64,000 bases of DNA, taken from NCBI GenBank assembly GCA_049514435.1, contig JBEKVB010000003.1:72131-136130 (forward strand), read 5' to 3'. Each line of letters starts with the position of its first letter. Positions within the stretch are counted from its first letter, which is position 1. Both the position numbers and the translations under genes were made by a program. Below, in pieces: positions 1 through 41,740 of the stretch. Below the pieces are notes generated by a model that ran no database searches, was not told the origin of the DNA, and worked only from the letters and a program-made list of their open reading frames with translations. This DNA comes from Smithellaceae bacterium. GTDB lineage: Bacteria; Desulfobacterota; Syntrophia; Syntrophales; Smithellaceae.

Positions 1-390
1 CAATTTTTTCCCTTAAAAAAATATTAAGCAAACTTATCTTAAAATACATTTAATGACAAGAACAAGATACTAGTAGTAAACAGCATAATTTATGCCACAG
101 ACCAGGAAAACATTATAATATTAAAGGAATTGGGATTTATTGTGTTTTTGATAAATATCACCGGAGGATAGAAATAAAAAAAGCTATCTGATGTGTGTAA
201 TACAGTTCGCACTGCGAACAGGACTTCACCTGCAAGAATTGATGTTAATAATTTATCCATCGGCCAAAAAGAAATAATTGTTCCATTAAATTATTGTTAT
301 CAATGATAATTCAAGATGGAAACGCTCTGAGGGCACCCAAATATTGTTGTAGAATTTGGTTAAAAATATTGATAAGTATTGTTGCAGATA

Positions 391-1911
391 ATGGATACAT
401 TTACTCTTGCGGCAACCAGCTTTATTATCGCTTTTTCACTCATGCTTACCGGTAAAAAGGATAAGCTGCATGGGTCTTTTGCCGCTCTTTGCACCACCGT
501 TTTTATTTTGCAAATCGCCGTTTTCCTCCGCCCTATCTTCGCTTCCGAATTTTGGGTAACTGCTGAATATATGGGAAGCCTGGCTATTGCGCCTTTTGCT
601 CTTCGCTTTTTCCGCCATCTGACCCGCAATAAATCTTTTATTTCGCGGGGAGTGGTTTTTATTTTCACTATCCTCAGTTCAGCGGGTGTTTTCTCTCTTT
701 TTATGGCAGTATCTGAATTGCCGCATTTTAAAGCTATCATATTATCTTACACCTTTAGTGCTCTCGCGCTCTGCTATATTGCCTTGTTACTTCATGTAAA
801 CAAATTACCTCCCAGCACCGAAAAAAAACGTTTGGGGTACTTGCTCGTTGCTTGTCCCCTTGCTGTGATAGTAAGCACTATTGATCTATTTAGTTACTTA
901 GGATTCAACTTTCCCCCGATAACCGGTCTTGCTCTATCAGCTTTGCTTTATCTAATTTTATTAATCATTGCTTATCCACAGCTCCATGAACTGCATGACT
1001 TTTTCGCCCGGGCGCTGGTAATTTTTATCAGCACGCTTGCCGGCACGATTATATTTTATTTTGTTGCCTTATTTTTCAGCTCCAACATACCTTCTTTTAC
1101 CAGCGTCCTGATGGCTTCTTTTTTAATTGCTATTTCCCTTTCGCCGATAAAAATGATTTTGAAAAAAAGTTTTAGCTACTTTTATCCCGACAGCAAAGAT
1201 GTTTTCACTTCTCTTTATGAATTCGACGAAAAGCTGGAAAGGGAAAAAGCCTTGATGCTGGCGGAAATGGCACCGGTTTTCGCTCATGAAATTCGCAATC
1301 CGCTGGGTTCGATAAAAGGCGCTGCCCAGTACTTGAAATCGGAAACACCATCCGAAGAGCAGCAAAATCTTCTCGATGTCATTATTGAAGAAGTAAACAG
1401 GCTCAATGCCGTAGTCAATCAATTTCTTGATTACGCCCGGCCATACAAACTCGATCTTAAAGCTCAAAACATCAACGTGATTATTCAAAAGGCTATCTCC
1501 ATCATCGCGGCCAATCGGCTGGCGGAAAACATTGCTATTGTCCGGGAGTTGAATCACAACCTGCCCGAAGTGGAAGTAGACGAACAACAATTTATGCAGA
1601 TCATCTTAAATATAGCCCTGAACGCGATCGAAGCAATGCCGCAGGGCGGCACTTTAACTTTTCGCACATCCAACATCGAATCCGGAACCGAAGGAGCAAT
1701 AAGCATAACGATTCGCGATACGGGAAGCGGAATAAGCAAAGAGGAAATAAAAAATATTTTCAAGCCATTTTTCACAACCAAGAAAAGAGGTGTTGGGCTT
1801 GGTCTGGCTATTTGCCAAAGAATCATCAAAGAGCACGGCGGAATCATCCGGGTAAAATCAATTCCTGCGCAAGGAACTGTATTCTTCATCAAGCTCAATG
1901 CAGCCGGCTAA
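391..1911 (+). CDS. membrane-bound sensor histidine kinase
   Basis: ORF 379..1911, first ATG at 391. Multiple N-terminal hydrophobic helices. H-box FAHEIRNPLGSIKGA, N-box LNIALNAIEAM, G-boxes IRDTGSGI and GVGLGLAICQ. Confidence 0.9.
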   Translation: MDTFTLAATSFIIAFSLMLTGKKDKLHGSFAALCTTVFILQIAVFLRPIFASEFWVTAEYMGSLAIAPFALRFFRHLTRNKSFISRGVVFIFTILSSAGVFSLFMAVSELPHFKAIILSYTFSALALCYIALLLHVNKLPPSTEKKRLGYLLVACPLAVIVSTIDLFSYLGFNFPPITGLALSALLYLILLIIAYPQLHELHDFFARALVIFISTLAGTIIFYFVALFFSSNIPSFTSVLMASFLIAISLSPIKMILKKSFSYFYPDSKDVFTSLYEFDEKLEREKALMLAEMAPVFAHEIRNPLGSIKGAAQYLKSETPSEEQQNLLDVIIEEVNRLNAVVNQFLDYARPYKLDLKAQNINVIIQKAISIIAANRLAENIAIVRELNHNLPEVEVDEQQFMQIILNIALNAIEAMPQGGTLTFRTSNIESGTEGAISITIRDTGSGISKEEIKNIFKPFFTTKKRGVGLGLAICQRIIKEHGGIIRVKSIPAQGTVFFIKLNAAG

Positions 1912-1965
1912 ACTTTAAACACAATCCAACTTGATTTAAATGCTAAAGCATAATAATTGTAAACC

Positions 1966-3339
1966 ATGAATAAAATTTTAATCGTTGACGATGAATTAAA
2001 TATGCGGCTGGTGTTGTCCGCCATGCTCAAAAAAGAAGGCTATGAAATTGCTTCCGCCTCCGACGGACGGGAAGCTCTGCAAATTTTAAAATCAAGTAAA
2101 ATAGCCGCGGTCGTATCCGATTTGAAAATGCCGGATATTGACGGCATGGAGCTGCTCAGCCGTATTTCTGAAAAGTATCCGGAAATACCCGTGATTATGA
2201 TTACCGCTCACGGCACTGTCGCCACTGCCGTCGAAGCTCTGAAGAAAGGCGCTTTGGATTATATTACCAAACCGTTTGATATAGATGAGTTAAAAAACGT
2301 TATCTCCAAAGCAATAAAAACACGCACTCTAAAAGAAAACGAATTGTTTTTGCCGCCGGAAGAAATTGAACGCACTGGTATTATCGGCACAAGCAGACGC
2401 ACACTGGAGATATTTGAGGCTATCAAAAGGGTCGCTCCGACGACAACAACAATTATGATCACCGGGGAAACCGGCACCGGAAAAGAGTTAGTGGCCGACG
2501 CCATTCATTATAACTCTCCGCGCAAAAAAAATCCGCTCATCAAAATCAACTGCGCGGCCATTTCTGAAACTCTGATGGAAAGCGAACTATTCGGTTATGA
2601 AAAAGGGGCTTACACCGGCGCCGCCATTACCAAGCCGGGGAAATTCGAATTGGCTCATAAAGGGACTTTGTTTCTGGACGAGGTGGGAGAAATTCCGCGC
2701 GATATGCAGGTAAAACTCTTACGCGTTATTCAGGAGCAGGAATTTGAACGAGTCGGCGGACTAAAAACAATAAAAGTGGATGTACGCATTATTGCCGCCA
2801 CCAATCAAAATCTTTTACAGCAGGTACAGGCGGGAAATTTTCGTGAAGATTTATACTACCGTTTCAATGTTTTTCCTATTGATGTCCCACCGCTCAGGGA
2901 AAGAAAAGAAGACATCCTGCCTCTGGTTGATTATTTCGTGGATAAATTTAATAAAAAGCTGGGGCTCTCTGTAGCTATTGACAGCGAAGTAAAGGAAATG
3001 CTTTTGCGCCATGAATGGCCGGGCAACATCCGCGAACTGGAAAATCTCATCGAAAGAATGATGCTGCTGGCAAAGAATAATCTGATTACGTCCCGGGAAG
3101 TTCCCGGCGAATTCAAGGCCGCTCTGGATAAAATCGTAACGGTGCCGGCAGATGACGGCAAAAAACCATTTAAAGAGTATATGCGTGATCACGTGGAAAA
3201 TGTAGAGAGACAAATGATTATCAAGTGCCTCGAAGAAGCCGGCGGCAACATCACCAACGCGGCTAAACAACTGGGGCTTAGCCGCAAGGGATTGCAATTA
3301 AAGATGATCAAATACAACCTGCGCAAAGAATCAAAGTAA
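1966..3339 (+). CDS. sigma-54-dependent response regulator (NtrC/AtoC family)
   Basis: Receiver domain (DDELNMR, SDLKMPDIDG). AAA+ Walker A GETGTGKE, GAYTGA loop, ESELFG. C-terminal Fis-type HTH NITNAAKQLGLSRKGL. Lies directly downstream of the kinase. Confidence 0.93.
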   Translation: MNKILIVDDELNMRLVLSAMLKKEGYEIASASDGREALQILKSSKIAAVVSDLKMPDIDGMELLSRISEKYPEIPVIMITAHGTVATAVEALKKGALDYITKPFDIDELKNVISKAIKTRTLKENELFLPPEEIERTGIIGTSRRTLEIFEAIKRVAPTTTTIMITGETGTGKELVADAIHYNSPRKKNPLIKINCAAISETLMESELFGYEKGAYTGAAITKPGKFELAHKGTLFLDEVGEIPRDMQVKLLRVIQEQEFERVGGLKTIKVDVRIIAATNQNLLQQVQAGNFREDLYYRFNVFPIDVPPLRERKEDILPLVDYFVDKFNKKLGLSVAIDSEVKEMLLRHEWPGNIRELENLIERMMLLAKNNLITSREVPGEFKAALDKIVTVPADDGKKPFKEYMRDHVENVERQMIIKCLEEAGGNITNAAKQLGLSRKGLQLKMIKYNLRKESK

Positions 3340-3390
3340 AGAATAAGATGTAGTCCTTAGCAATACATCTTTGATAAACTAAGTAAGAGC

Positions 3391-4233
3391 CTACTTACTT
3401 TTTCTTTCCTTCTCGATGAATTTAGTCGTATTGCGAAAACTTAACATACCTGGCAGAGAAAAATAATCCTTATACTTCTTTTTCAGCTCCGCTTGTTTTT
3501 CCGGTTTTCCGATAGCATCGCCGATAGAAACAAAGTAGTCTTTCATTACAGCAAGAGCGCTTTGATCCGAAATCTTTCCATGACCCGGAATTAAGGTTCT
3601 TATTTTATATTTTTGGGAAAGTGAATCAAGAACGCCTATCCAGGAAGCTACGTTGGCGCCACTCTCTGCATGTAAAGCCGCGTGCATATCGAGAAGTACT
3701 AAATCGCCGGCAACGAGAAGTTTACGCTTTTCACAATAGACAACCACATCGTTCCACGTATGCGCCCTCCCCATATTGCGAATGTGCACGGTTTCGCTCC
3801 CAATCTTAATCACTTTTTCCTCACCGGGTTTTAAAGCCAGGTCAGGATACCTGCTGGTTTTTTTAGAATCATTGTCCCACTGTTCATTGGTGTACGCCCC
3901 GGAAATGATTTTTGCCGCTGGATAAAGCGCGTTCCCACCGGTATGATCGTAATGTGCGTGTGTATTGACAATTGTTATCTCCGCAGCCTTCACTTCATCT
4001 CTTAGTTTTTTTGCCGCTCTCATCATCTTTGTATCAACGACAAGAGCTTTGGAGCCATCCTCGGAAGTCAAAACAATCGAGTTTCCTCCGCCGCCGAGAT
4101 ATACCGTCAATTGAGGGTCAAGCTGGACAGTCTCCACTTTTCCGAACTGCTGGTATATTTTCCAGAAATAGAAACCGCCTACAGCAATGATTGCTACAAT
4201 CAACAAAACAACAATAAGCAGAACCTTTTTCAT
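3391..4233 (-). CDS. MBL-fold metallo-hydrolase with N-terminal membrane anchor
   Basis: HxHxDH motif HAHYDHTGG, later His/Asp ligands (PGHG), N-terminal hydrophobic helix. Confidence 0.85.
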   Translation of the reverse strand: MKKVLLIVVLLIVAIIAVGGFYFWKIYQQFGKVETVQLDPQLTVYLGGGGNSIVLTSEDGSKALVVDTKMMRAAKKLRDEVKAAEITIVNTHAHYDHTGGNALYPAAKIISGAYTNEQWDNDSKKTSRYPDLALKPGEEKVIKIGSETVHIRNMGRAHTWNDVVVYCEKRKLLVAGDLVLLDMHAALHAESGANVASWIGVLDSLSQKYKIRTLIPGHGKISDQSALAVMKDYFVSIGDAIGKPEKQAELKKKYKDYFSLPGMLSFRNTTKFIEKERKSK

Positions 4234-4450
4234 AATGCCTCCTTAGGAGTCAATAATGTGGTTATACAACTCCCCTACAATATTGTTGATTAATTTTACT
4301 CTCTTGCTAACTTAGGTGAATACTAAAGATTACATACCGTTATGTCAAGATAAAACCGCCCGGATAAAAACAGCAAAAGCTTCTCGGGTTAGAGATGGAT
4401 ATTCTTGTAATCGCCTTGAAGTTAATGTATAAATTCCGCAAGGAGATATT

Positions 4451-5590
4451 ATGTTGACCAAAGAAGATATTATTGCGGAAGCCAAACGGCTGGGATTTGC
4501 CGATATCGGTTTCACTGACGCGGAGCCTTTTTCCTCTCAAAAAGAATATTTGCTGGCGCATCAGGAAGAGTATGGCTGGACAGAGGCTGCCGGTTTCAGT
4601 TTGCTTGCCGGAACGGATCCCAAAAACATCCTCCCTAATGCAAAATCCATAATCGTACTGTTGGAGTCTTATTTCGAAGAAGCGTTTCCGCTCAAAATGG
4701 AACGTCATTTCGGCCGCTGTTATCATAATGATGATCGGGTTACTAAAGATGGTCTGGCGCTTAAAGTCAAAGCCTTTCGTCAATTCCTCAAGGCGAACGA
4801 CATGGACTCCAAGGTGCCGCCCCACATGCCTCACCGTCTTTCAGCCGCGCGAGCCGGATTAGGGACTTTCGGCAATAACTGCGTTTTTTACGCACGGCGT
4901 GTTGCCCGCGCCAGTTCGTTTGTGTTTCCCATCGCCATTTTAATTGATGCTGAATATCCTCCCGATGAACCGACTATTGCCATCGGTTGTCCGGAATGGT
5001 GCCGTAATGCCTGCGTGGCAGCGTGTCCTACGCACGCGCTCAAAGGAGGTGGGAAGATTGATCCTCACCGCTGCATCTCTTATTTGACATATTATGGCGA
5101 AGGACTCACGCCCCTTGAACTCCGCGAACCCATGGGCATGTATGTGTACGGATGTGATCGCTGTCAGAATGTTTGTCCCCGCAATACCCCCTGGATGGCC
5201 GAAGAAAAGTCTCCCCATGCTAAAGTAGCGGCCAAGGCCGCAAATTTCGATCTGTCCTGCCTCCTACATATGGACAAGCCATACTTCGAGCAGAAGATAT
5301 GGCCGCACATGTTCTATATGTCTGCAGATGATCTCTGGCGCTGGAAGATGAATACGGCTCGCGCCATGGGCAATACTCTCAAACCTGTTTACGTTAAAGA
5401 CCTCATCCGGGCATTCCAAGAAAATTCCGATGAACGCGTAAAGAGTATGATCGTGTGGGCACTAGGCCGTATTGGCGGAAGCCAGGCCAAAACCGCTCTG
5501 AAAAAGTTTCTCCAGGATAGTGCGGGCAAGGTAAAAGAAGAAATCACACAGGCTATTGAAGCATCCGAAAGCAGCATGCTCAGCCGCTAA
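4451..5590 (+). CDS. queG: tRNA epoxyqueuosine(34) reductase-like Fe-S protein
   Basis: QueG-type N-terminus MLTKEDIIAEAKRLGFADIGFT. Two 4Fe-4S motifs (CPEWCRNACVAACP, CDRCQNVCP). C-terminal HEAT-like repeats. Confidence 0.82.
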   Translation: MLTKEDIIAEAKRLGFADIGFTDAEPFSSQKEYLLAHQEEYGWTEAAGFSLLAGTDPKNILPNAKSIIVLLESYFEEAFPLKMERHFGRCYHNDDRVTKDGLALKVKAFRQFLKANDMDSKVPPHMPHRLSAARAGLGTFGNNCVFYARRVARASSFVFPIAILIDAEYPPDEPTIAIGCPEWCRNACVAACPTHALKGGGKIDPHRCISYLTYYGEGLTPLELREPMGMYVYGCDRCQNVCPRNTPWMAEEKSPHAKVAAKAANFDLSCLLHMDKPYFEQKIWPHMFYMSADDLWRWKMNTARAMGNTLKPVYVKDLIRAFQENSDERVKSMIVWALGRIGGSQAKTALKKFLQDSAGKVKEEITQAIEASESSMLSR

Positions 5591-5631
5591 ATATTTCATT
5601 AATGCCAACAATATATCTTGTTTTAATTATC

Positions 5632-5660
5632 TTGACACACAAGTGCCGCCTTCATATACT
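5632..5660 (+). promoter_or_regulatory. sigma-70-type promoter
   Basis: TTGACA (5632-5637), 17 nt spacer, TATACT (5655-5660). About 55 nt upstream of the ATG at 5715. Confidence 0.6.
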
Positions 5661-5714
5661 CGGCAAACCAAAAGCAAGTTTTTAGTAAAAATAATTTGAA
5701 AGGAGTTTGAATCT

Positions 5715-6887
5715 ATGAAAGCAGGAGAAATCAAAACAATCGCAATCGTGGGCGCAGGAGATATGGGCCACGGCATCGCGGAAGTTTGCGCCCTGGCCGG
5801 GTTAAAAGTAAATCTTTATGACATCAAGCAGGAATTTGTAGATAAGGGCAAAGGCAAAATAAAAGAAAGCCTGGAGAAACAGGTCGCCAAACAAAAGATG
5901 ACGGCAGATAATTCCAATAAGATAATGAATAATATCCATGGCTTCACGGTTTTAAAAGAAGCGGTGAAAGATATTGATTACAGTATTGAAGCCGCTCCGG
6001 AAATACTCGAGCTTAAGGTAAAGATATTCAAAGAAATTGACGAAAACGCTCCCAAACAAGCTATACTCGCTTCCAATACATCCAATATGAGTATTACTCA
6101 AATGGCAGCCGCTACAAAAAGACCAGATAAAGTAGTGGGAATTCATTTTTTTAATCCGCCGGTCATGATGGCTCTTGTTGAAGTTATCCGCGGTCAGAAA
6201 ACCTCTGAAGAGACTGTGAACATCAGTTATGATTTTATCCTGAGATTAAAAAACTTCAGAGGCGCTATGGTTCCGGTTCGTGTAGAGAGAGATTCACCGG
6301 GATTTATTTTCAACAGAATTAACGCGCCGGTAGGATTATATCTGGCCGAGATATACGAGAAGGGGCTTATAATTCCTGAGGCCGTTGATGCCAAAATCAG
6401 ATCAATCGGCGCCCCGATGGGCCCATACGAAACAATGGATTTTGCCGGACTTGATGTTTACGCCCATGGTTCGGATTATTTTGCCAAAACATTATCTCCG
6501 GAATTCAAACCTAGTAACTGGTTGAAGAAAATGGTCGAAGCCGGCACGCTGGGCAAAAAGACCGGCAAAGGTATTTTCAATTGGCCGGGAGGCGCCAGGC
6601 CCACGATAGACATGAGTAAAGCCGATCCCAACTTTGACCTGATGGATATTGTATGTCTTCAGGTTAATGAGGGAACCAAACTTTTACAGGAGGGTGTTAC
6701 AAGTAGCGCCGCTGAAATCGATAAGGCCATGATCAACGGAGGCGGTTCGCCCTTTGGACCATTTGCTCTTGCCAAAGGAATGGGCTGGGCAAAAGTAGCC
6801 GAACGATGCGAGGCTATTTCGAAAAAGCTTGGCATTAAGTGGTTTCTGCCCACCGACACGCTGAAAAAAGGGAATATCCAGATTTAG
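5715..6887 (+). CDS. 3-hydroxyacyl-CoA dehydrogenase family protein
   Basis: Rossmann motif IVGAGDMGHGIA. NTSNMSITQMA and HFFNPP motifs typical of 3HCDH N/C domains. RBS AGGAG upstream. Confidence 0.88.
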   Translation: MKAGEIKTIAIVGAGDMGHGIAEVCALAGLKVNLYDIKQEFVDKGKGKIKESLEKQVAKQKMTADNSNKIMNNIHGFTVLKEAVKDIDYSIEAAPEILELKVKIFKEIDENAPKQAILASNTSNMSITQMAAATKRPDKVVGIHFFNPPVMMALVEVIRGQKTSEETVNISYDFILRLKNFRGAMVPVRVERDSPGFIFNRINAPVGLYLAEIYEKGLIIPEAVDAKIRSIGAPMGPYETMDFAGLDVYAHGSDYFAKTLSPEFKPSNWLKKMVEAGTLGKKTGKGIFNWPGGARPTIDMSKADPNFDLMDIVCLQVNEGTKLLQEGVTSSAAEIDKAMINGGGSPFGPFALAKGMGWAKVAERCEAISKKLGIKWFLPTDTLKKGNIQI

Positions 6888-6910
6888 TCATAACCATTGG
6901 AGAATAAGAA

Positions 6911-6946
6911 AAGGGAGCTCATTTAAAAAAATGAACTCCCTTTTTT
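6911..6946. terminator. bidirectional intrinsic terminator
   Basis: Hairpin AAGGGAGCTCATTT/AAATGAACTCCCTT flanked by A-run and T-run. Sits between convergent genes. Confidence 0.7.
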
Positions 6947-7010
6947 AAAACGAACCTCCCTCGCCGCAAGCAGTGGGGTATCTGATCAGAGATATCCCGA
7001 ATCGCTGCGC

Positions 7011-7490
7011 TTAATGCGCTGTTACTTCCATGTTCTCAATCACCAGGTCATCTTTTATTTCTATACAGCCCATGATGCTCTGGGCGGCGGGGCAAAATTT
7101 CAAATAAGAAGAAAAAGCATCCTGTGCTTCGGCTACTTTTTCCGGATGAATTTTTAAATAATACTTAACACGAATTTGAGTGATTTTGAGCACATTATTG
7201 ATATTTTCTATATCTCCTTCAACATCAGCCCGGTAACGTTCTTCAGAAGTGGAAATTTTCTTTCCGGCCAGCAACGCGGCCAGTGTTCCCATCATTCAGG
7301 CGGCAGTCGCCGCTACAATATGATCAAGCGTTGCGGCATGTTCTTTTTCCGGTTCTACTTTATAAAATTTCTTTATCCCGCCATGGACTCCATAATAAAT
7401 CGGTTCATTAAAGCCCTCAATAATGGCCTTTCTTGTCGGGCCATTTTCGCGCACAATTTTAATACGCGATGTATGCACTATCTCTCCCAT
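7011..7490 (-). CDS. OsmC/Ohr-family peroxiredoxin, candidate selenoprotein (in-frame UGA at 7296-7298)
   Basis: ORFs 7296..7490 and 7011..7295 are in the same frame, separated only by TGA. The joined sequence LDHIVAATAA-U-MMGTLAALLAG matches the OsmC helix that carries the peroxidatic Cys. The second motif FCPAAQS is present. Confidence 0.7.
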
Positions 7491-7546
7491 GCGACATCCC
7501 CCCTCTTTATTTTACGGATGGTTAATCCTCGTTATAAGCAACTTTA

Positions 7547-8179
7547 TTAAAATTGAACACCTTGAGCAATAAATACGGCAATGCCTCTGCGAATAATCAT
7601 TACAGCAATTGCCGCCAAAAGCAGGCTGCTGATTTTCGACATCGTCTTCGAACCTGTTTTACCGAGAACGCGATTGATCAGCGGAGCTGAAAGAAAAATA
7701 CCACCGGCGATCAAAATATTGATAATAATCGCCAGAGATGTAATGACCAAAGTGTGCTCATTGATTAGCAGCATTGAGGTGGTCAACACTGCCGGCCCTG
7801 TTATCAGCGGCACACCGATGGGCACGGCGCCCATGCTATCCAGATCAATGGGATATGGACTTTTATCGGTGGAAATAATTTCCCTGATCGAGATAATGAA
7901 AAGGAGCGTTCCGCCAGCGATCATGAAATCAGCAACTGTGATACCGAGTAGGTTCAGTATTATCGTACCCAAGGCAATAAAGGCCAAAGCAACAATTAAC
8001 GCCGTAATCATCGATTGAAAAACAACACGCCTGATTTTTTGCGGCTCAATCCCCTCGGTGAGATTTATAAATAGCGGCAGAACGCCAAAAGCATTTACGG
8101 CCACAAAAAGAGGCACAAAGCACAACCAAAATGATTTCATCATATCCAGGACTCCAATAGTTGATCCATTTATCTGCAT
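7547..8179 (-). CDS. MarC-family (UPF0056) integral membrane protein
   Basis: About 200 aa with six hydrophobic helices and a Gly/Pro-rich loop GAVPIGVPLITGPA, typical of the MarC family. Confidence 0.7.
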   Translation of the reverse strand: MQINGSTIGVLDMMKSFWLCFVPLFVAVNAFGVLPLFINLTEGIEPQKIRRVVFQSMITALIVALAFIALGTIILNLLGITVADFMIAGGTLLFIISIREIISTDKSPYPIDLDSMGAVPIGVPLITGPAVLTTSMLLINEHTLVITSLAIIINILIAGGIFLSAPLINRVLGKTGSKTMSKISSLLLAAIAVMIIRRGIAVFIAQGVQF

Positions 8180-8320
8180 TATACCAAATTGGCGTCAGAA
8201 TGTTACCAAATAAAAGAGCTATTGAGGGGAATATTGGCCATAGCTATCCGGCTTTATAATAGATATTCTTGTAATCATCCAGACATTGTTATATAAGTTC
8301 CATAATTTGTGGAGACGGCA

Positions 8321-9043
8321 ATGCATTTAAAGAGCATAACCATTCATCCGGAAAAATATCCGACTCAAGAGTGTTATCCTTTTTATTTGCCAATTTTTCA
8401 AAAGGCAAAGCAAATTATCTTCAATTCACCGGTTACATTATTTGTAGGCGAAAACGGAACAGGCGAATCTACACTGCTCGAAGCTATCGCCATCGCCTGC
8501 GGCATTCATATCTGGCGCAATTCCGAAAGAAGCCGTCCTGAATACAATCCCTATGAGGATAAACTTCATCAATACATTTCCGTGCAATGGGAAAATGGCC
8601 ATGTTCCCGGATCTTTTTTCGGCTCAAAAATATTTCAGCACTTTGCCGAATTATTAGATGAGTGGGCGGCGGCGGATCGAGGCCAGTTGAATTACTTTGG
8701 CGGAAAATCTTTAACTACTCAGTCTCACGGACAATCGCTGATGTCTTTTTTCCGCAGCCGTTATCAAATTAAAGGGCTTTATCTGCTGGATGAGCCCGAA
8801 ACCGCTCTTTCTCCGAAAAGCCAAATCGAACTGCTTGCCCTCCTTGATAAAATGAGCATCAATGGCCACGCGCAATTCATCATCGCCACTCATTCTCCGA
8901 TATTGCTGGCCTGCCCGGGAGCAAAAATTTATTCATTTGATTATTCCGCGGTCCAGCCAATCCGCTATGAGGAAGCCGCTCACTACCGCCTTTACAAAAA
9001 ATTCATGGAAGACAGAAATGCATTCCTAAATCATGATAAATGA
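8321..9043 (+). CDS. AAA/ABC-like ATPase (soluble)
   Basis: Walker A GENGTGESTLLEA, Walker B LYLLDEPETALSP, H-loop IIATHSP. GGAG RBS 6 nt before the ATG at 8321. Confidence 0.85.
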   Translation: MHLKSITIHPEKYPTQECYPFYLPIFQKAKQIIFNSPVTLFVGENGTGESTLLEAIAIACGIHIWRNSERSRPEYNPYEDKLHQYISVQWENGHVPGSFFGSKIFQHFAELLDEWAAADRGQLNYFGGKSLTTQSHGQSLMSFFRSRYQIKGLYLLDEPETALSPKSQIELLALLDKMSINGHAQFIIATHSPILLACPGAKIYSFDYSAVQPIRYEEAAHYRLYKKFMEDRNAFLNHDK

Positions 9044-9220
9044 GCACCTCGTCAAGACAAGTAATAATACAATCCATTTGTATGCTAATACAACAGCTAT
9101 TATGATTAAATTATTTATTACGTGTATTACTTTTAGTCTTGACATATGATTATGAAATATTTAGAGTTTCATCGCACAAAATATCCTCTTTAAAAGCGAA
9201 GGATACAAATCTTATCTCGC

Positions 9221-10168
9221 ATGAATATTCCAGACCTGCTACAGAAAATGTATCAAGACAAGAGACTGAGCCGGGAACAGCTAAATTCTCTTCTGGATAT
9301 ACATTGGAAAAGACTCTTTTCAGTGCATCACGAATTACGTTTTTTTCTTTATGCTGGTATTTTGCTCATCATCGCCGGGCTGGGTTTTACAATCAAACAA
9401 TACTTCGCACAACTAGGCGATATTGCCATCATCAGCACTTTAACTCTCTGTGCGTGCACCGCTTTTATTTACTGTTTTATTAAGGGGAATAATTATTCCA
9501 AAGAAGAAGTTACCTCGCCCAATCTCCTGTTTGATTACATCCTATTTTTCGGCTGCACCGTCTACTCGATGGATATTGCTTATATTGAAACACAATTCCA
9601 TGTTTTGGGCGATCTTTGGAATAACTATTTATTAGTTTCTGCTGCCTTATTCCTTTTTCTGGCATACCGTTTTGATAATCGCCCTGTTTTATCACTGGGC
9701 TTATCCACTCTCGCGGCCTGGTTCGGTTTTACTTTATCCGGACACCGCTTTTCCTTTCAGGAATATTATCGCCTATACGCTATTACTTACAGCATTATTG
9801 TTTTTTTAGGAGGAGGATTTATCTACTTGCTATCAATGAAGAAACATTTCTTCGATATCTATCTTAATTTCGCTGTTAACTTTCTCTTTATTGCGCTGAT
9901 TTCTGGCGTAATTGATTACAAATTATTCTCTCTTTATTTTCTTGGTTTGCTCGTTGCCTGCATTATTCTTGTTTTATATTCCCTTCATACCCGAAAATTT
10001 CTCTATATGCTTTACGGAATCATCTACGGCTATATAGGAATCAGCATCGGGTTTTTTGATTTAATCCGGCATGAAACTTCGCTGGTGTTTTTGTATTTCA
10101 TTTTTACTTCGTTGGCAGTGATAATTATGATTTTTCTTTTATCCCGCAAGTTCAAGGAGGATGAATGA
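9221..10168 (+). CDS. polytopic membrane protein, unknown function
   Basis: 315-aa ORF with 8 or more hydrophobic helices after a short soluble N-terminus. Overlaps the next ORF by 4 nt (ATGA). Confidence 0.6.
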   Translation: MNIPDLLQKMYQDKRLSREQLNSLLDIHWKRLFSVHHELRFFLYAGILLIIAGLGFTIKQYFAQLGDIAIISTLTLCACTAFIYCFIKGNNYSKEEVTSPNLLFDYILFFGCTVYSMDIAYIETQFHVLGDLWNNYLLVSAALFLFLAYRFDNRPVLSLGLSTLAAWFGFTLSGHRFSFQEYYRLYAITYSIIVFLGGGFIYLLSMKKHFFDIYLNFAVNFLFIALISGVIDYKLFSLYFLGLLVACIILVLYSLHTRKFLYMLYGIIYGYIGISIGFFDLIRHETSLVFLYFIFTSLAVIIMIFLLSRKFKEDE

Positions 10169-11370
10169 ATTTCTGTATTTATACTTCTGAACAGGAAGAA
10201 AACATCTGCACAAGAAAGAAAGCAAAAACATGGCACCGCGCCGGCCTGATTTCCGAAGAACAACTTCGCCTTATGGAGACCGAAATCGAACCCTATGTTA
10301 ACCAGACTAACTTATTCTTTCGCCTGATCTTCTTCTTATTCACATTGCTTTGCGCAACAGCCGTGACCGCTTTTCTCATCTGGCTCATGAAGGAGCCGAG
10401 TGATACAGCGGCAATGTCAATATTGATTTTATTTAGCATCCCTTTTTATGTACTTGCAGAATATGTAATAAAAAAATATCATTTTTATAGGTACGGTATT
10501 GAAGAAGCGCTTGCTATCATTAGCATTGTTTCTTTATGTGTTGGCTGCGGAATCCTTTTGGACAAATATCACCTGGATCATCAATTGGAAGCTATTGCTA
10601 TATCCCTGCTCTTTGCTGTTATCTCTTTTTGGATATATCTGCGCTTCGGTTTTTTGTACTCAGCCTTAATCAGCATTACAGCCCTTTGCGTAATTCCCTT
10701 CCAATTATCACTGCCGCCAACCGAAGAAAGAGCTTTTCTGCTATTTATTTTGTGCCTGATTCTCCTCATAAATATACTCATTGATAAATCAGATAATGAA
10801 GATTTCCGGAAAGAAAGGAACATCCTGATTCAGGCATGTCTTTTGGCGGCTATCTATCTGGCAGTGAACCTGCGGCTACTCGAATTGGCAAGATTATATT
10901 TTGACCATCTCAGCATGATCCTTCAACCCTATGCCGGCTTTCCTCCTTACATTTATTGGTCGTCCTATATACTTACTTTTCTGATTCCCGCTTTGGGGAT
11001 CTACTGGGGAATCAAAGGCCGCAAACGGCTGATCATGAACGTAGGTCTTGTTCTTGCCTGTCTGACGCTCGCTACAAACAAAAGCTATCTGAGCTGGACC
11101 CGCTACGCCTGGGATCCGGCATTTATGGGAATAATACTGATTATCATATCCATTATCATTTCGCGCTGGCTTTCGCGAGGACCAAATAAAACAAGATATG
11201 GTTTCACGACAGAAAACTTACTGAAACCAGAAAACTATGGAATCAACCTGGCAGATATAGGCACAGCCCTTACGCCCGCTTTTGTCGATTCTCAGCAACC
11301 CCCGACACAAACAGAAAAATTCTTCGATGCCGGCAAATCCGGCGGCGGCGGCGCTTCCCGAGACTTCTAA
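10165..11370 (+). CDS. polytopic membrane protein with Gly-rich C-terminus, unknown function
   Basis: 401-aa ORF translationally coupled to the previous gene. Many TM helices. C-terminal GKSGGGGASRDF tail. Confidence 0.6.
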   Translation: MNFCIYTSEQEENICTRKKAKTWHRAGLISEEQLRLMETEIEPYVNQTNLFFRLIFFLFTLLCATAVTAFLIWLMKEPSDTAAMSILILFSIPFYVLAEYVIKKYHFYRYGIEEALAIISIVSLCVGCGILLDKYHLDHQLEAIAISLLFAVISFWIYLRFGFLYSALISITALCVIPFQLSLPPTEERAFLLFILCLILLINILIDKSDNEDFRKERNILIQACLLAAIYLAVNLRLLELARLYFDHLSMILQPYAGFPPYIYWSSYILTFLIPALGIYWGIKGRKRLIMNVGLVLACLTLATNKSYLSWTRYAWDPAFMGIILIIISIIISRWLSRGPNKTRYGFTTENLLKPENYGINLADIGTALTPAFVDSQQPPTQTEKFFDAGKSGGGGASRDF

Positions 11371-11451
11371 TATATATATGAATATCGTGGGCTTTCTTTT
11401 CAACTTTATTTTTTAGAATTTGTTGAATACAAAAACCATTGGAGGATTAAA

Positions 11452-12501
11452 ATGACAGACGGCATCGTAAATAAATTATCCATCATGGATCGCTTTTTAA
11501 CTTTATGGATTTTTATAGCCATTGGTATTGGCATCGCGCTGGGGTATTTTCTTCCCGCGGCGGCAAATTTCATTACCGGCCTGCAAGTCGGAACAACTTC
11601 GATTCCCATTGCCGTAGGACTGATTCTCATGATGTATCCGCCCCTGGCACGGGTCAAGTATGAAGAGATGGGCAGGGTTTTTCAAAACAAAAATCTTCTG
11701 ACGATATCACTTCTGCAAAACTGGGTAATCGGCCCGCTGGTCATGTTTGTGCTGGCGGTAATTTTCCTGCATAACTATCCTGAATACATGATCGGCGTTA
11801 TACTGGTTGGTTTGGCGCGGTGCATTGCCATGGTTATCGTCTGGAATGAGCTTGCTTGCGGCGACCGGGAACTGGCCGTCGGCCTCGTGGCTTTTAACGC
11901 CATCGCGCAAGTGCTTTTTTACGCCTTCTATATTTATTTCTTTATCACCGTAATACTCAACTGGCTGGGACTCGCTCAGTCCGTCAATATCAACGTCTCC
12001 ATGGCCGAATCGGCAAAAACAGTTTTTATCTATCTCGGTATTCCATTTCTCGCAGGCTTGATTACCCGCTATTCAATTATCTGGTGGCGAGGTGAAGATT
12101 GGTTCAATAATGTTTTTATGCCCAAGCTCTCGCCGCTGACGCTTATCGCATTACTCTTTACCATCGTCGTAATGTTTTCTACGCAGGGCAATAAAATTAT
12201 TGAATCGCCTCTGGACGTGTTCCTTGTGGCAATTCCGCTGACCATCTATTTCGTTATCATGTGGTTTGTTACGTTTTTTATCATCAGAAAAATAAGCGGC
12301 AATTACGCCCAAACATGCGCTGTATCCTTTACTGCGGGGAGTAACGATTTTGAGCTGGCAATTGCTGTTGCTATTGCTATTTGGGGTATTGGTTCCGGTC
12401 AGGCATTTGCCGCCGTCATCGGCCCACTCATCGAAGTGCCGGTGCTTATTATTCTGGTGAACGTCGCCTTGAAATTTAAAAATAAGTTTTTTTCTGCTTA
12501 G
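11452..12501 (+). CDS. acr3: ACR3-family arsenite efflux transporter
   Basis: Typical ACR3 N-terminus [10 protein letters not shown]. Conserved LARCIAMV motif with the essential Cys. About 10 TM helices, about 350 aa. Confidence 0.9.
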
Positions 12502-12608
12502 AACGGATAAAATAAAAATCGCCTAACCAAAAAAGGCCAAAGGCAGACTCGACCCCCTTCGCTTATCTGCTCTCGTGGAAAGACAACTCTATAAAATCCC
12601 AAAACTTT

Positions 12609-13268
12609 TTATTCCGGATATCCTACTGCCTGAACCAGAACAATTTTCTGTCTGTCGCGCAACTTCATGTTCTTGGAAAGGGCGTCCCTATCGACCAATC
12701 CGCGAACCCCTGTAACCAGTCCTTCGGAAGAGCAATACAAATAAACGTTCTGGGCAATGAAACCGGTATCCGCAGCCGAATAGAATTTTTTCTCCTCATC
12801 GTTCGTGTAAACGCTCATCTTCGAATAGTCCGCCACATAGATCAATTGCAGCGGCGCGCCTTCTACCGAGCTTCTTGATGGTTGGGGGAACGTGGTCGTG
12901 TTCTTGCGCAGATCGTTTTTCAATACAGGTTCGAGCACATGAGCTTTTGCGTTATAAAAATAAAGGCCTTCTTCCATGGCGACATAGACATCTATTTCCT
13001 GCCGGTTACTGGCGGACGGTGCAGTGCGTTTGCCGCTATCCGGCCGGTTGATACCACAGGCCGACCAGAGAAGATTGGAAAGCACTTCTATCGGCAGTTT
13101 TTTTGTATTGAACGACCGGGATGTTTTTCTCTCCTGCAACGATTGCATCAGAGATTTCCCGCCTTTCATATCGGGCGGAAAAAGTTTAATCGGACTAAGG
13201 TCGGCAGCAATTGAAGAAGAAACAAAACAAAATATAATGGCGACACTCAGCAATATTTTTTTTAACAT
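12609..13268 (-). CDS. secreted nitroreductase-fold (SagB/ThcOx-like) protein
   Basis: ORF 12609..13343. Likely start is MLKKILLSVAIIF (signal peptide). Motifs RKTSRSF and LSNLLWSACGINR. Confidence 0.72.
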   Translation of the reverse strand: MLKKILLSVAIIFCFVSSSIAADLSPIKLFPPDMKGGKSLMQSLQERKTSRSFNTKKLPIEVLSNLLWSACGINRPDSGKRTAPSASNRQEIDVYVAMEEGLYFYNAKAHVLEPVLKNDLRKNTTTFPQPSRSSVEGAPLQLIYVADYSKMSVYTNDEEKKFYSAADTGFIAQNVYLYCSSEGLVTGVRGLVDRDALSKNMKLRDRQKIVLVQAVGYPE

Positions 13269-13470
13269 AATACCCTCCAATATTTTAAAGACTTTTTTAA
13301 CAACGCTCCGATTCTTTTTATCTTCGTCATTCCTGTCCCGCATATGCGGGATAAACTCCGGCCCGCTTGTATGATACAGGGCAAATCCAGATCACCGGAA
13401 AGATAGAGATGGCGATGCTCTGCCGCTATCCGCTAAATAAATACAACCTCCAGGATTATTTTCAATGAAC

Positions 13471-14130: not shown

Positions 14131-14505
14131 CTATTCTTTTGTTCCGTCGAAAGTGCCCGTTGCCTGGCCTCCTAAATCAATGGTACCCGACATTTTGTTA
14201 CCATCAACCTTGCCTTTATAAATCGTAAGTGCTCCGCGCATGGTATACTGCATTTCAACGTCTTTACCTTTAACGGTTCCCGTTACCGGTGCCTCTCCGA
14301 AGTAGCCTTTATAGGTTCCCGTCAATTTTTTGCCGGCTTGCTTCAATGTGAAGACAGGAGTGCCTGAACCCTGTGGAGTCGTAACTGACATATTTCACTT
14401 ACCGGTTAAATTCACTTTGCTTTTCGCAGCCGCTTGAATAAATGTCGCTGAAGCTAACAAACCCAGAACAACTAAACACATAACTACTAGATTAAATTTT
14501 TTCAT
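14131..14505 (-). pseudogene. small secreted beta-rich protein interrupted by an in-frame TGA (14395-14397)
   Basis: ATG at 14505 encodes the signal peptide MKKFNLVVMCLVVLGLLASATFIQAAA. It is in frame with ORF 14131..14391, separated only by one TGA. Confidence 0.55.
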
Positions 14506-33719: not shown

Positions 33720-34241
33720 TCACTGTATCACGCCGCAGGCAACTCGGGCACCGCCGCCGCCGAGAGCTTCGGGATAGTCTGAATAATTGTCGCTGCCCGC
33801 ATGAACCATCAATGATCTCCCCTTAAGGTCTGAGACTTTCAGCCGCGGTGAGACAACAGGCAGAGTTGCCTTGCCGTCAGTCCCTGCATAAAGGGCGGGT
33901 AGGTCTCCCAGGTGCCCTTTTCCGTATGGCCCTTCATGCTTGCCGGTTTTAAGGGGGTCGTAGTGCCCACCTGCGGCAAGAGCCGCAACATGCTTGCCCT
34001 CTTTCATGGCATGATTGCAATCAGCATTTTGATGTACATGAAATCCATGCATGCCGGGAGAGAGATCGCTTAGTTGAGGGGTGAGAATAAGGCCGTACTG
34101 GCTATCGGTGGCAGTAACGGTGCCAATGTACTTGCCGATACCCTGATCAGTTACCAGATTTACCTTTATTACCATTTCATCAGCCAGGGCATAGCCTGCA
34201 AAAGACATAACAATGAAAAGTATAAATAGTGTTTTCTTCAT
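33720..34241 (-). CDS. sodC: periplasmic Cu/Zn superoxide dismutase
   Basis: Signal peptide. Motifs GFHVHQNADC, GHLGDLP and GGGGARVACGVI. Confidence 0.93.
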   Translation of the reverse strand: MKKTLFILFIVMSFAGYALADEMVIKVNLVTDQGIGKYIGTVTATDSQYGLILTPQLSDLSPGMHGFHVHQNADCNHAMKEGKHVAALAAGGHYDPLKTGKHEGPYGKGHLGDLPALYAGTDGKATLPVVSPRLKVSDLKGRSLMVHAGSDNYSDYPEALGGGGARVACGVIQ

Positions 34242-34400
34242 CTTTTCCTCCTTTTAATCAGTGCTTTCGATAAATCGTGAAATCAGGTTCTTATTTAATT
34301 TTATAAGCTTTTGCTTTCTAACATGAAAAATATAGTAAAGTTCTATTGGTATGTCAATTATTTTTCCCCTGACGGTGTTTTTGATAATTTGATAAGATAT

Positions 34401-34590
34401 TGCTTACTGTCCGAAAAAATCATCTCATTGTGGATAACAATCGATAAAGATTACCATTTGAAAGAAAGTATGCCCATGAAAAATCCCAAATGCTCCCTTA
34501 CAGGAAGAAGTGCTTACTGACTACACCTACTAAGTTTCAGTTTTACGTGGCTCTTAAAATTGAAGATTACTGGTTGTAAGGTGCTAACAT
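34401..34590. repeat. cassette-boundary repeat R4, copy F
   Basis: GATTAC-CAT-TTGAAA at 34449 and GATTAC-TGG-TTGTAA at 34565 (116 bp apart). Core ACAGGAAGAAGTGCTTACTGACTACACCTAC. A partial extra core TGCTTACTGT sits at 34401. Confidence 0.85.
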
Positions 34591-34680
34591 TTAATATACG
34601 AACTTCACTTTCCCCTTCCCCGATGATTTGAATATCGTAAAAGAAACTATTCTACCAGTTTTCTACAATTGTATTTCCCA

Positions 34681-35844
34681 TTAATAAATAAATATCTTAA
34701 CTTCTTTCATAAACGAATATGTTAATATTTTTCCGTCTTTTGTGCGAATCTTTACCATGTCACCGCTAAAACTGATTACTTGTCCTTCAATGACATTCCC
34801 GTTCTGTAATTCTATTCCCTTTAGCCCCTCTATTGCTTGGTAATGCTTTTCTGAATCCACCGGACGATTGGTAACTGAGATATCCTTCTTAGGAACTTTT
34901 ACTTTATATTTGCGTAGTCGCGTACTGTTGTTGTCCTTCTTAAATTGATTTAAAAGGGCAATCACAGAATCAGCATCGCCCTCGTTATAAGTCTTCAGCA
35001 GTGAATCTCTCAAACGCCTTGGTTGTTTTTGTATCCACGCCACAATTCTTCCTGAATCCCTTAAATTATCAAAGTCTGGATGAGCGCTTCTTATGGTATT
35101 AAAATGTTTTTCTTTAGCAATTCTTTCTAAATCTTCATTTGAGGTTGGACCAGTTGGTTGATCTGGTACTGGAGCTGGTGCAGGTGCCGGTTGCGCAACG
35201 GGTGCTTCGACTTTAGGAGTCGCTACCGATACTAGCTCTTCCCTTTTGTTTAGGTTTGCAATTGTGAACAGAATGCCAGCGAGTACGATAATAATTAGTA
35301 TAGATATAATGACAGCTTTATTAAGAGTTTTAGCTTTTAGCTTATTTTCTTCTATATGAGGTTTGCCAACTGCTCTTTGCTGTGGTGATAGTCTCGAAAG
35401 AGTTTCTGCTTTTACCTTTCTTTCTTCTATGTGAGGTGTGCTAACTGCACTTTGCTGTGGTGATGGTCTCGAAAGGGTTTCTGTTTTTACCTTTGTTTCC
35501 TCTATGTGAGGTGTGCTAACTGCACTTTGCTGTGATGATGGTCTCGGAGGTGGTTCCTCGGTTATCTTTGAAACTTCTCGCGGCGGAACTTTTTGTTCTA
35601 ATATATTTTGTTTGGCAACTTTAACCGGAGGTAAGGCCATAGTGCAGTGCCAGCATTTTATTGCATCATCTTGAAGCTCTCCATCACAGAATGGACATTT
35701 TTTCATAGAAACTTTTGGCGGCGGAACTTTTTGTTCTGACGTATCTTGCTTGGCAGCTTTAACCTGAGGTAAAGTCATAGTGCAGTGCCGGCATTTTATT
35801 GCATCGTCTTGAATCTCTCCATCACAGAATGGACATTTCTTCAT
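34681..35844 (-). CDS. single-pass membrane protein with duplicated N-terminal zinc ribbons and a triple internal repeat
   Basis: Two copies of KKCPFCDGExQDDAIKCxHCTM, three copies of SRPSPQQSAVSTPHIEExKVK, one TM helix and a conserved-looking C-terminal domain. Likely start is MKKCPF. Confidence 0.65.
   Translation of the reverse strand: MKKCPFCDGEIQDDAIKCRHCTMTLPQVKAAKQDTSEQKVPPPKVSMKKCPFCDGELQDDAIKCWHCTMALPPVKVAKQNILEQKVPPREVSKITEEPPPRPSSQQSAVSTPHIEETKVKTETLSRPSPQQSAVSTPHIEERKVKAETLSRLSPQQRAVGKPHIEENKLKAKTLNKAVIISILIIIVLAGILFTIANLNKREELVSVATPKVEAPVAQPAPAPAPVPDQPTGPTSNEDLERIAKEKHFNTIRSAHPDFDNLRDSGRIVAWIQKQPRRLRDSLLKTYNEGDADSVIALLNQFKKDNNSTRLRKYKVKVPKKDISVTNRPVDSEKHYQAIEGLKGIELQNGNVIEGQVISFSGDMVKIRTKDGKILTYSFMKEVKIFIY
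35330..35550. repeat. intragenic ~66-bp tandem repeat (3 copies)
   Basis: Repeated CGAAAG(A/G)GTTTCTG(C/T)TTTTACCTTT...TCTATGTGAGGTGTGCTAACTGCACTTTGCTGTG units. They encode the PQQSAVSTPHIEE repeats. Confidence 0.8.
35582..35844. repeat. intragenic ~125-bp tandem duplication (zinc-ribbon module)
   Basis: 35582-35706 and 35720-35844 are near-identical (CATAGTGCAGTGCC.GCATTTTATTGCATC.TCTTGAA.CTCTCCATCACAGAATGGACATTT). Confidence 0.8.
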
Positions 35845-35961
35845 CGCTGCTCCTTTAAAACACAAAACCCTGCGCTCTTTTAATAAACTTAGTTTTTCCA
35901 GATGTGTTGAACATCATTATAGCACATTATTTTTTTTAAAAAAGGAGGGAAACAGAGCATC

Positions 35962-36025
35962 CTTTATTACGGGTTGAAATATTGTGTGAATTGGAAAAAA
36001 CATAAAAACAACATTGTAGGAAGTT
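35962..36025. repeat. cassette-boundary repeat R4, copy G (partial)
   Basis: TATTAC-GGG-TTGAAATATTGTGTGAATTGGAAAAAACATAAAAACAACATTGTAGGAAGTTA. Closely matches the left half of copy A, then breaks off. Confidence 0.8.
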
Positions 36026-36082
36026 AGATTCAGAGATCGCTTTTTTAGAATTGGGATCGAAGCGACGCCGCGCAGCGCCCGC

Positions 36083-36265
36083 ATAATAATGAGACTCGAC
36101 GACTATAGGAGTCGTTAGTCGTAGTGAGACTCGCTGAAAACGAACAAAGTGAAGTTTGAAGAGGAAGTCGAACTATCCAATAGCCAAAGGCTATTGGGAA
36201 TTATCCCAGAAGCGTAGTACCCTGAAGGGCATCTACGACGACGTGGGATTTCTACCTTATGTAAT
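36083..36265 (-). repeat. modular hairpin array R2, short copy
   Basis: Modules begin with TAATGAGAC/TAGTGAGAC. Includes the perfect hairpin CCAATAGCC-AAA-GGCTATTGG and the nested stem CCCA..CGTAG..CCC-TGAA-GGG..CTACG..TGGG. Collinear with 41917-42237. Confidence 0.8.
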
Positions 36266-36335
36266 TTTCCCGATCCATAAGTTCATCCACCCAATGAGAT
36301 GGTTTTGATTATTCTGTAACCAGTCTAAAAAAAAT
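36266..36335 (-). repeat. promoter/leader repeat R1, copy b
   Basis: Same sequence as 25121-25192 and 42238-42312. On the minus strand it contains AGGA-N5-ATGGATCGGGAAAATTACATAAGGTAG (MDRENYIR-stop). Confidence 0.85.
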
Positions 36336-36498
36336 GAATCGCAGCCGTATTCCTTTATCAAACGTCAATGGTAAAGATTTGACCCCACTTTCACTCCATA
36401 ACCGGATAGTTTATGTGCCTCTTTCAACTGTTCAAAAACAACTTGACAAGACGCACCTGATGGCGTTACTACAATATATAAACTGGAATGATTCCGAA

Positions 36499-36933
36499 AT
36501 GAAAAAGATTAACAAAGAAGACCTAATTGGTCAGTTGAAGGAAAAAGGCCTCAAAATTACGCTACAGCGTCTGGCGATTATCGACGCGCTGGCGGAAAAT
36601 TGCGATGCGCATCCGGGCGCTTCGCTCATCTATAATGAGGCCCGAAAGAAAGCCAAACGCGTCAGCCTCTCCACGGTTTACGCAACGCTCAAGGAGTTTT
36701 CCGAAAGCGGACTGATCAAGCAACTGGAGTTTGACCGGATGGAAAACCGTTATGACGGCAATCTGTCTGAACATATTAACCTCATCTGCAAACGGTGCGG
36801 AACAATTATTGATTACCATATTCCTGCGAACCTTGAACCCAAAGACATTGCCCGAAAATCGGGATTTGTCGTCACCGATACCCGGATGGAATTCCACGGG
36901 TATTGCCGCGACTGTCTGAAGCGACCCGACTAA
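36499..36933 (+). CDS. perR: Fur-family regulator, PerR-like
   Basis: Fur fold motifs LKITLQRLAIIDAL, HxH-less CKRCG...CRDC zinc pairs. About 144 aa from the internal ATG at 36499. The upstream part of ORF 36334.. is repeat DNA. Adjacent to katG. Confidence 0.8.
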   Translation: MKKINKEDLIGQLKEKGLKITLQRLAIIDALAENCDAHPGASLIYNEARKKAKRVSLSTVYATLKEFSESGLIKQLEFDRMENRYDGNLSEHINLICKRCGTIIDYHIPANLEPKDIARKSGFVVTDTRMEFHGYCRDCLKRPD

Positions 36934-37051
36934 TCTTCTTATCCTACAGCCTCGCGGCATATAAACCGACGGTGAAAGAAGCAGATAAGCGGCTTTTATT
37001 TTTTGACTGGAATCATTCCAGATTAGATAAGGAAAGGTAAAATAACCATAA

Positions 37052-39295
<2,244 letters not shown>

Positions 39296-40748: not shown

Positions 40749-40889
40749 ATTGTTGAAACTCTAATTCCGAAAGCGAAGCATAACGGAATTGGTAAGTTGA
40801 ACAATCCCGTGAAGCGGAGGGTTTAATACCCCGCAGCTTGCTACGGAATCTGTTTCCAAAGCTTGCTTTGGGGTTCATACCCGTGATTT
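40749..40889. repeat. structured repeat R3, copy a (overlaps the 3' end of the 40841 gene)
   Basis: AAACTCTAATTCCGAAAGCGAA...CGGAATTGGTAAGTTGAACAATCCCG...GGAGGGTTTAATACCCCGCAGC...GCTTTGGGGTTCATACCCGTGATTT. Collinear with 41741-41875. Confidence 0.8.
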
Positions 40890-41716: not shown

Positions 41717-41740
41717 GGCAGGTTCTACTTATTGGATTTT

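Follow-up and report, generated by a model that had tools for sequence, protein, structure and literature searches.

On the minus strand of the 64-kb stretch of DNA analysed here, to which we refer as the window, two ORFs follow each other in the same frame, one running from 7490 to 7296 (64 amino acids and a TGA) and the other from 7295 to 7011 (94 amino acids). The TGA at 7298..7296 is their sole separator, as the first-pass annotation of this DNA had described from sequence and translation. Read through, they form a recoded OsmC-like gene at 7011..7490 (minus strand) of 159 codons, which ends in a TAA at 7013..7011 and carries the in-frame UGA (7296..7298) as codon 65. This codon takes the position of a peroxidatic cysteine and is the proposed codon for selenocysteine (Sec), U65. 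The joined translation comprises 159 residues and reads ...ATLDHIVAATAA-[UGA]-MMGTLAALLAGKK..., or equally ...EHAATLDHIVAATAA-U-MMGTLAALLAGKK...SYLKFCPAAQS...; the FCPAAQS motif, which the same annotation had placed downstream in the joined reading, is found at residues 132-138. The tryptic peptide predicted to span residue 65 is EHAATLDHIVAATAA-U-MMGTLAALLAGK. In the public gene calls examined the gene appears as two ORFs. NCBI names the 94-amino-acid fragment 'OsmC family protein' (P0031, P0032), so that the gene is mis-annotated in public data; the 64-amino-acid part appears in public calls as 'hypothetical'.

A strong Shine-Dalgarno sequence, GAGGGGGG, lies at 7498..7505 (minus strand), 7 nt before the ATG at 7490, and an intrinsic-terminator-like hairpin of 16 bp followed by a T run lies at 6909..6944 (minus strand), 67 nt past the TAA stop. 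Upstream, co-oriented and 57 nt from the OsmC-like gene, is a gene for a marC-family membrane protein (7547..8179, minus strand; Pfam MarC, 118 bits), preceded by a promoter-like site at 8206..8178 on the same strand that matches at 10 of 12 positions and has an extended TG. The order of MarC and then the OsmC-like gene is also found in the related loci L001 and L002. We infer that marC and the OsmC-like gene probably form one operon. The listed marC start is 8179, yet the promoter-like site ends at 8178 and the Pfam MarC match begins at residue 14; the true marC start is probably an internal Met codon near 8143-8140.

The in-frame TGA and the genetic code of the window

Contigs of four independent DNA runs, from different studies, show zero differences across 6950-7560, and from this agreement it follows that the TGA is no sequencing or assembly error. 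The first-pass annotation had allowed that resequencing might turn the codon into TGC or TGT; it is TGA in all four assemblies. The exact 611-bp stretch is present in at least 20 independent metagenome runs from peat, wetland and soil. Metatranscriptome contigs from two runs (7011-7346 and 7164-7344) cross the UGA and leave 7296-7298 unchanged. The locus is thus transcribed as one RNA, with no sign of editing.

TGA serves as the terminal stop in 8 of the 38 Pfam-supported genes of the window, and Trp is encoded 182 times by TGG, which excludes a UGA-reassigning genetic code in the window and agrees with the earlier proposal of a local recoding event under the standard code. The only in-frame TGA among these 38 genes is that of the OsmC-like gene. 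Scanned for ORF pairs that are split by a TGA, the window yielded about 40 candidates. Ten of these were examined by read-through, and nine of the ten are antisense or intergenic noise. The tenth, with a TGA at 14395-14397, was considered as a second Sec codon and rejected, the position being a near-invariant Trp for which near-identical strains have TGG. It lies in a gene at 14131-14505 (minus strand) for a small secreted protein with a signal peptide and a Gly-rich beta domain, one homolog of which is labelled 'DUF2147 family' by JGI. Three related loci (L088-L090) have TGG there and differ at just two other bases, and the TGA itself is present in four independent assemblies. This TGA arose from TGG by a recent nonsense mutation at strain level and is silent on the use of Sec.

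An OsmC-type protein and its conserved UGA column

With Cys entered for Sec, the joined protein matches the Pfam OsmC family PF02566 at 38.2 bits (cutoff 27.5; E = 2e-09), and the match covers residues 56-146 and therefore spans the UGA. A sequence search of the PDB returned a single, weak match, the Ohr structure 6d9n, at E = 0.1 with the single sequence and 0.007 with a profile. Both alignments match the UGA column to the Cys in ...SACF..., which is the first active-site residue of this Ohr, and C133 of CPAAQS to the Cys of CPYS. The first of these, following the Ohr/OsmC literature, we take to be the peroxidatic Cys, and the second, in the CP motif, the resolving one. The codon of Cys133 in FCPAAQS lies at 7092..7094 (minus strand). 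This Cys is near-invariant in two homolog alignments, with a conservation of at least 90% among homologs, and is the proposed resolving residue. The catalytic roles of U65 and C133 would accordingly be those of their Ohr counterparts by analogy, and the identification of FCPAAQS as a resolving-Cys motif in the first-pass annotation is consistent with the alignment to the CP-motif Cys of 6d9n, the resolving role itself being assigned by homology.

Because the PDB sequence search was marginal, we turned to structure prediction followed by a fold search. The fold was assessed on a confident AlphaFold model of P0001, a natural Cys-form homolog that is 84% identical to the window protein (pLDDT 82.4, pTM 0.79). 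All of the top 50 PDB matches of this model are OsmC/Ohr proteins, at probability 1.00 and E-values from 2e-6 to 2e-4. The TM-scores are just 0.45-0.62, at a sequence identity of 12-22% to the OsmC/Ohr structures; these modest scores might stem from the domain-swapped dimer of the OsmC fold. The Pfam score and a model that matches OsmC/Ohr proteins and nothing else support the membership of the protein in the OsmC superfamily, as had been suggested from the sequence. Its scores against the curated subfamilies are low. The protein reaches 15.1 bits against a cutoff of 88.85 for Ohr (TIGR03561), 16.5 against 85.8 for OsmC (TIGR03562) and 17.6 against 166.15 for the SACOL1771 family (TIGR03563). 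Against the NCBIfam model NF041052 it scores 18.3 bits (E = 0.0017), far below the 95-bit cutoff of that curated family, and we have therefore kept it apart as a member of a separate OsmC-superfamily selenoprotein clade.

A protein search returned about 19 full-length homologs (152-164 amino acids) together with more than 100 fragments of 88-94 amino acids that start just after the UGA position, which is the product expected when gene callers split a selenoprotein gene. In the full-length database proteins the UGA column holds C or W. The C of P0001 is a genuine TGC in the DNA. The Smithella fragments are TGA-split genes. The W of P0007 has a different origin, since the DNA at its locus (L004:770-772) reads TGA and the database protein is not reproduced under table 11; its W is an artefact of a caller that used a code in which UGA is Trp. 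Trp is also given at the Sec column in P0008, P0010, P0012, P0013, P0014, P0017 and P0046, which like P0007, the entry checked at the DNA level, come from JGI, ENA and Logan calls. Such W-bearing entries could mislead alignments of this OsmC-like Sec clade.

Of 449 relatives detected in species-representative genomes, 80 loci were kept. They come from metagenome-assembled genomes (MAGs) labelled Syntrophales/Syntrophaceae, Smithella, Syntrophus, Syntrophobacter, Desulfobacterales, Desulfomonilia, other Thermodesulfobacteriota, Nitrospirota/Thermodesulfovibrionales, Candidatus Abyssobacteria and others. Across the related loci, the window included, codon 65 is TGA in 79 of 87 and TGC or TGT in 8 of 87. 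Carriers of TGC or TGT are L001-L003, L014, L016, L017, L018, L021, L091, L093 and L094. TGA is retained at this codon down to a protein identity of 72%. The homolog alignment that had been suggested as a check places the UGA on the first of the two active-site Cys residues in Ohr 6d9n, and relatives have a true TGC or TGT at the same place. Just upstream of the UGA, D56, H57, A60 and A61 are identical in all 76 distinct genes, and their codons vary synonymously by 0.9-1.9 bits. Residues that are conserved while their codons are free indicate that the upstream ORF is translated in one frame with the downstream ORF and that purifying selection acts on it, and on this ground a pseudogene is excluded.

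Some further features of the relatives were seen along the way. Several of them carry a second, canonical OsmC gene of 132 amino acids within 0.1-2 kb of the Sec or Cys gene (L001:6558-6956, L005:12347-12745 and equivalents); the annotated ORFs of the window include no gene of this kind. Positions 1-13300 of the window are collinear with three MAGs labelled 'uncultured delta proteobacterium' (L008, L010, L011) at about 88-92% DNA identity, and the window, which has a GC content of 44%, also matches in part, at 84-95%, a MAG from a fen labelled 'Syntrophaceae bacterium' (L009). These matches point to a Syntrophales-like bacterium of peat or wetland that differs from every species representative compared; MAGs at roughly 90% identity to it are CAVXLI01, CAVPJZ01 and CAVWEH01.

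The hairpin downstream of codon 65

A SECIS-like hairpin lies at 7264..7283 on the minus strand, separated from the UGA by a spacer of 12 nt. In the mRNA it reads CUGGCC-GCGUUGCU-GGCCGG and starts at the 13th nucleotide past the UGA (+13 to +32). It has a stem of 6-7 bp, CUGGCC(G/A)...UGGCCGG, and a small apical loop. The first-pass annotation had described this hairpin and its distance from the UGA correctly, but had placed it at 7254-7273, about 10 nt away from its correct position at 7283..7264. Folded as a single sequence, the 71 nt of 7230-7300 give a z-score of 0.00, and 93 of 200 shuffled sequences fold at least as well. The significance of the hairpin comes for this reason from the comparative data only.

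All 79 Sec forms fold the hairpin, and the mean minimum free energy over the 48 nt from the UGA is -12.9 kcal/mol in the Sec forms compared with -6.3 kcal/mol in the 8 Cys forms. Counted from the U of the UGA, a 7-bp helix pairs columns 16-22 with columns 29-35, and 97.4% of its cells are paired in the ungapped alignment of 71 distinct sequences, compared with 2-53% for control helices in which the 3' arm was slid by 1-3 columns. The pair 16-35 changes from C-G to U-A, a compensatory exchange, in 6 sequences. In L035 (10193-10240), L046 (5299-5346) and L072 (same position) the stem is register-shifted to CUGGCA...UGUCAG with both arms changed, at the cost of an Ala-to-Ser replacement in the protein, a clear case of RNA structure overriding protein sequence. 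These three loci belong to Desulfobacterales/Desulfatibacillum MAGs. The apical loop holds a near-invariant G at 7275 (minus strand; column 24 from the U of the UGA), which is G in 73 of the 76 distinct Sec genes, and such a G, conserved within a small apical loop, is a published hallmark of the bacterial SECIS (PMC1088965). A hairpin conserved at this spacing, with its arms and loop maintained, agrees with the earlier proposal that it occupies the position of a bacterial SECIS element.

The stem is partly dictated by the conserved Leu-Ala...Leu-Ala-Gly peptide that it encodes. The strongest evidence for the hairpin comes from synonymous positions within these genes. At the hairpin codons 69-76 the synonymous entropy has a mean of 0.57 bits (0.32-0.86), compared with 1.74 bits at the remaining 64 degenerate codons in these 76 genes (Mann-Whitney p = 1e-9). 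At codons 71 and 75, 89% of the Ala codons are GCC, compared with 39% in the rest of the gene. From this suppression of synonymous variation it follows that selection acts on the RNA over and above the constraints set by the peptide.

In the Cys clade of L001 and L014 a mid-stem G-to-U change has abolished the hairpin, and in L091, also a Cys form, it is absent; the Cys lineage of L093 and L094 has kept a 5-bp version. The hairpin is lost, then, in two of three independent Cys lineages; a Cys codon and a missing hairpin go together well, though with an exception. Compared with the bacterial SECIS of the E. coli fdhF type, studied by Böck and by Engelberg-Kulka, the stem in the window is shorter (6-7 bp) and unrelated in sequence, and we regard it as a putative SelB target.

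Proposed decoding of the UGA, known relatives and redox context

The gene at 7490..7011 is very probably a real selenoprotein gene in which the catalytic Cys has been replaced by a UGA-encoded Sec. It had been put forward as a candidate OsmC selenoprotein with UGA at the peroxidatic Cys, and the prevalence of TGA among its relatives, the existence of Cys homologs and the conserved hairpin all lend weight to that proposal. Very likely the hairpin brings SelB and Sec-tRNA(Sec) to the UGA, so that a single OsmC/Ohr-type selenoprotein of 159 amino acids is made. The complex of SelB and Sec-tRNA(Sec) would be recruited by the mRNA hairpin at 7283..7264, and codon 65 would be decoded as Sec. If the enzyme works as Ohr and OsmC do, U65, which sits where the long helix begins at its N-terminus, would then attack a hydroperoxide and be converted to a selenenic acid, which Cys133 (CPAAQS) may resolve to a selenenylsulfide. 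A thiol or dithiol donor, possibly a lipoyl protein or a thioredoxin-type reductant, would reduce this selenenylsulfide and thereby recycle the putative peroxidase.

The stop codon and the next start codons are directly juxtaposed at this site, the sequence UGAAUGAUGGG is invariant in 71 sequences, and gene callers predict exactly the 64- and 94-amino-acid ORFs. These observations would suit a reading in which the UGA is a true stop and termination-reinitiation at UGA-AUG-AUG yields two proteins of 64 and 94 amino acids, perhaps a split OsmC-like fold without Sec. We consider this very unlikely, because the split would delete the catalytic residue, the UGA column being the Cys of Ohr, and because Met66 and Met67 are equally conserved in the Cys forms (CMMGT), where a restart is needless. 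AUG66 moreover has no purine-rich Shine-Dalgarno run in the preceding sequence UAGCGGCGACUGCCGCC, and the codons just upstream are synonymously free (1.8-1.96 bits). Reinitiation would also leave the selected hairpin 12 nt downstream with no role, though in its position and its loop G it resembles a bacterial SECIS.

It takes a single-base change to turn TGC into TGA, and the window does hold one genuine recent nonsense mutation, the TGG-to-TGA change at 14395-14397, so that the TGA of codon 65 might be thought a nonsense mutation from TGC or TGT in a pseudogene, or a sequencing or assembly error in an ordinary Cys-type OsmC gene. The two cases behave differently, however. The codon at 14395 reads TGG in near-identical strains, whereas the TGA of codon 65 is kept even in distant relatives and occurs in 79 sequences, with purifying selection on both of its sides; the four assemblies that are identical at the locus speak against an error as well. 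A pseudogene or an error is thus extremely improbable. The same must be said of a UGA that is read as a standard amino acid, whether through a variant code that gives Trp or Gly (tables 4 or 25) or through near-cognate read-through. The W at the Sec column of P0007, P0008, P0010 and other database entries would fit it, but in the entry that was checked against its DNA the W reflects the choice of code by the caller, and the window uses TGA as a stop and TGG for Trp. Trp or Gly at this position would also abolish the peroxidatic chemistry, while the natural homologs have Cys.

Selenoproteins of the OsmC type are known as such. An OsmC-like selenoprotein family has been listed since the analysis of the Sargasso Sea data in 2005 by Zhang, Fomenko and Gladyshev, with three Sec sequences, an assignment to COG1765/YhfA and PF02566 and the motif UxxT (PMC1088965), and an 'OsmC-like protein' is still among the selenoprotein families in reviews of 2022 and 2026 (PMC9312934, PMC13188914); the mention of metagenomic OsmC-like selenoproteins in the first-pass annotation thus has a published basis. 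The window protein shares with that family the Pfam superfamily, the replacement of an active-site Cys by Sec, the existence of Cys homologs and a discovery by computation only, as well as a stem-loop in the coding region past the UGA with a G in its small apical loop. It differs in its motif, which is U-M-M-G-T (UxxxT) in place of UxxT. The habitats differ too: the published family is from marine plankton, the window clade from Thermodesulfobacteriota and Nitrospirota that live as anaerobes in peat, wetland and soil. Whereas Sec is dominant in the window clade, the Cys homologs are the more numerous in the published family (PMC1088965, table). Unlike the members of the 'OsmC-related (seleno)protein' family NF041052, the window protein falls below the curated cutoff.

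The predicted fold of P0001 matches that of the Cys-based enzymes, E. coli OsmC (1nye, 1qwi) and Ohr (6d9n, 1n2f, 1zb9), and the two redox residues are equivalently placed, one at the start of the long helix and one in the CP motif; unlike these enzymes, the window protein would have Sec for the first Cys. The logic of Sec replacing Cys at the peroxidatic residue is that of the Sec forms of peroxiredoxin and glutathione peroxidase (PMC1088965), but these have a thioredoxin fold and the window protein an OsmC fold. The general kind, an OsmC-type selenoprotein, is therefore already known, and the window protein represents a divergent, apparently undescribed subfamily outside the curated family. 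In a full-text literature search, no paper dealt with the window clade, and for no OsmC selenoprotein was experimental work found.

More tentatively, and with rather more doubt than conviction, we suggest that this is a distinct, undescribed OsmC clade in which Sec is both ancestral and dominant, being used in about 90% of the species-level genomes. It would be widespread among the Thermodesulfobacteriota and Nitrospirota that live as strict anaerobes in peat and wetland, and have a clade-specific SECIS and possibly another substrate or reductant than Ohr and OsmC. The Cys sub-lineages would then be recent reversions from Sec to Cys.

As a selenoprotein gene the finding is solid and useful for annotation, and it will leave specialists unsurprised. 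The curated NCBIfam selenoprotein model misses the window clade, which adds a Sec-dominant branch to the OsmC superfamily. Since public calls split the gene or give a Trp, functional inventories would lack an antioxidant enzyme that is common in the anaerobes of peat and wetland. Close sister lineages with Sec and with Cys, with and without the hairpin, offer a natural experiment on why peroxidases keep or abandon selenium.

None of the roughly 48 Pfam-annotated ORFs of the 64-kb window is selA, selB or selD, and none belongs to another known selenoprotein family. ARAGORN detected no tRNA-Sec in the window, and Rfam at gathering thresholds returned tRNA-Glu only. The lineages involved belong to groups that have been reviewed as the richest in selenoproteins (PMC9312934). 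In a Nitrospirota MAG with the TGA form (L068), a tRNA-Sec (14273-14370, complement) lies 4 kb from the OsmC-like gene; selA and selB were not found among the genes around it. At 10552-12629 of the same locus the OsmC-like gene is directly followed by msrA and a gene for a pyridine-nucleotide disulfide oxidoreductase of 497 amino acids, a possible redox partner.

The window itself holds a group of oxidative-stress genes at 33720-39295, in what is presumably an anaerobic host, 26-32 kb from the OsmC-like gene. The group includes a Cu/Zn superoxide dismutase (33720-34241, minus strand), a Fur-family regulator (36334-36933, plus strand) that may be PerR-like, and a KatG-type catalase-peroxidase of 746 amino acids (37055-39295, plus strand). 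These genes and the neighbours in L068 fit an oxidative-stress role of the OsmC-like gene without proving it. Further along, at 40841-48377, ORFs that have no Pfam match (40841-41716, 42335-42847, 43355-43756, 43780-44541 and 47976-48377) and the unannotated gaps at 44541-46097 and 46912-47976 surround a SIR2-family gene at 46097-46912.
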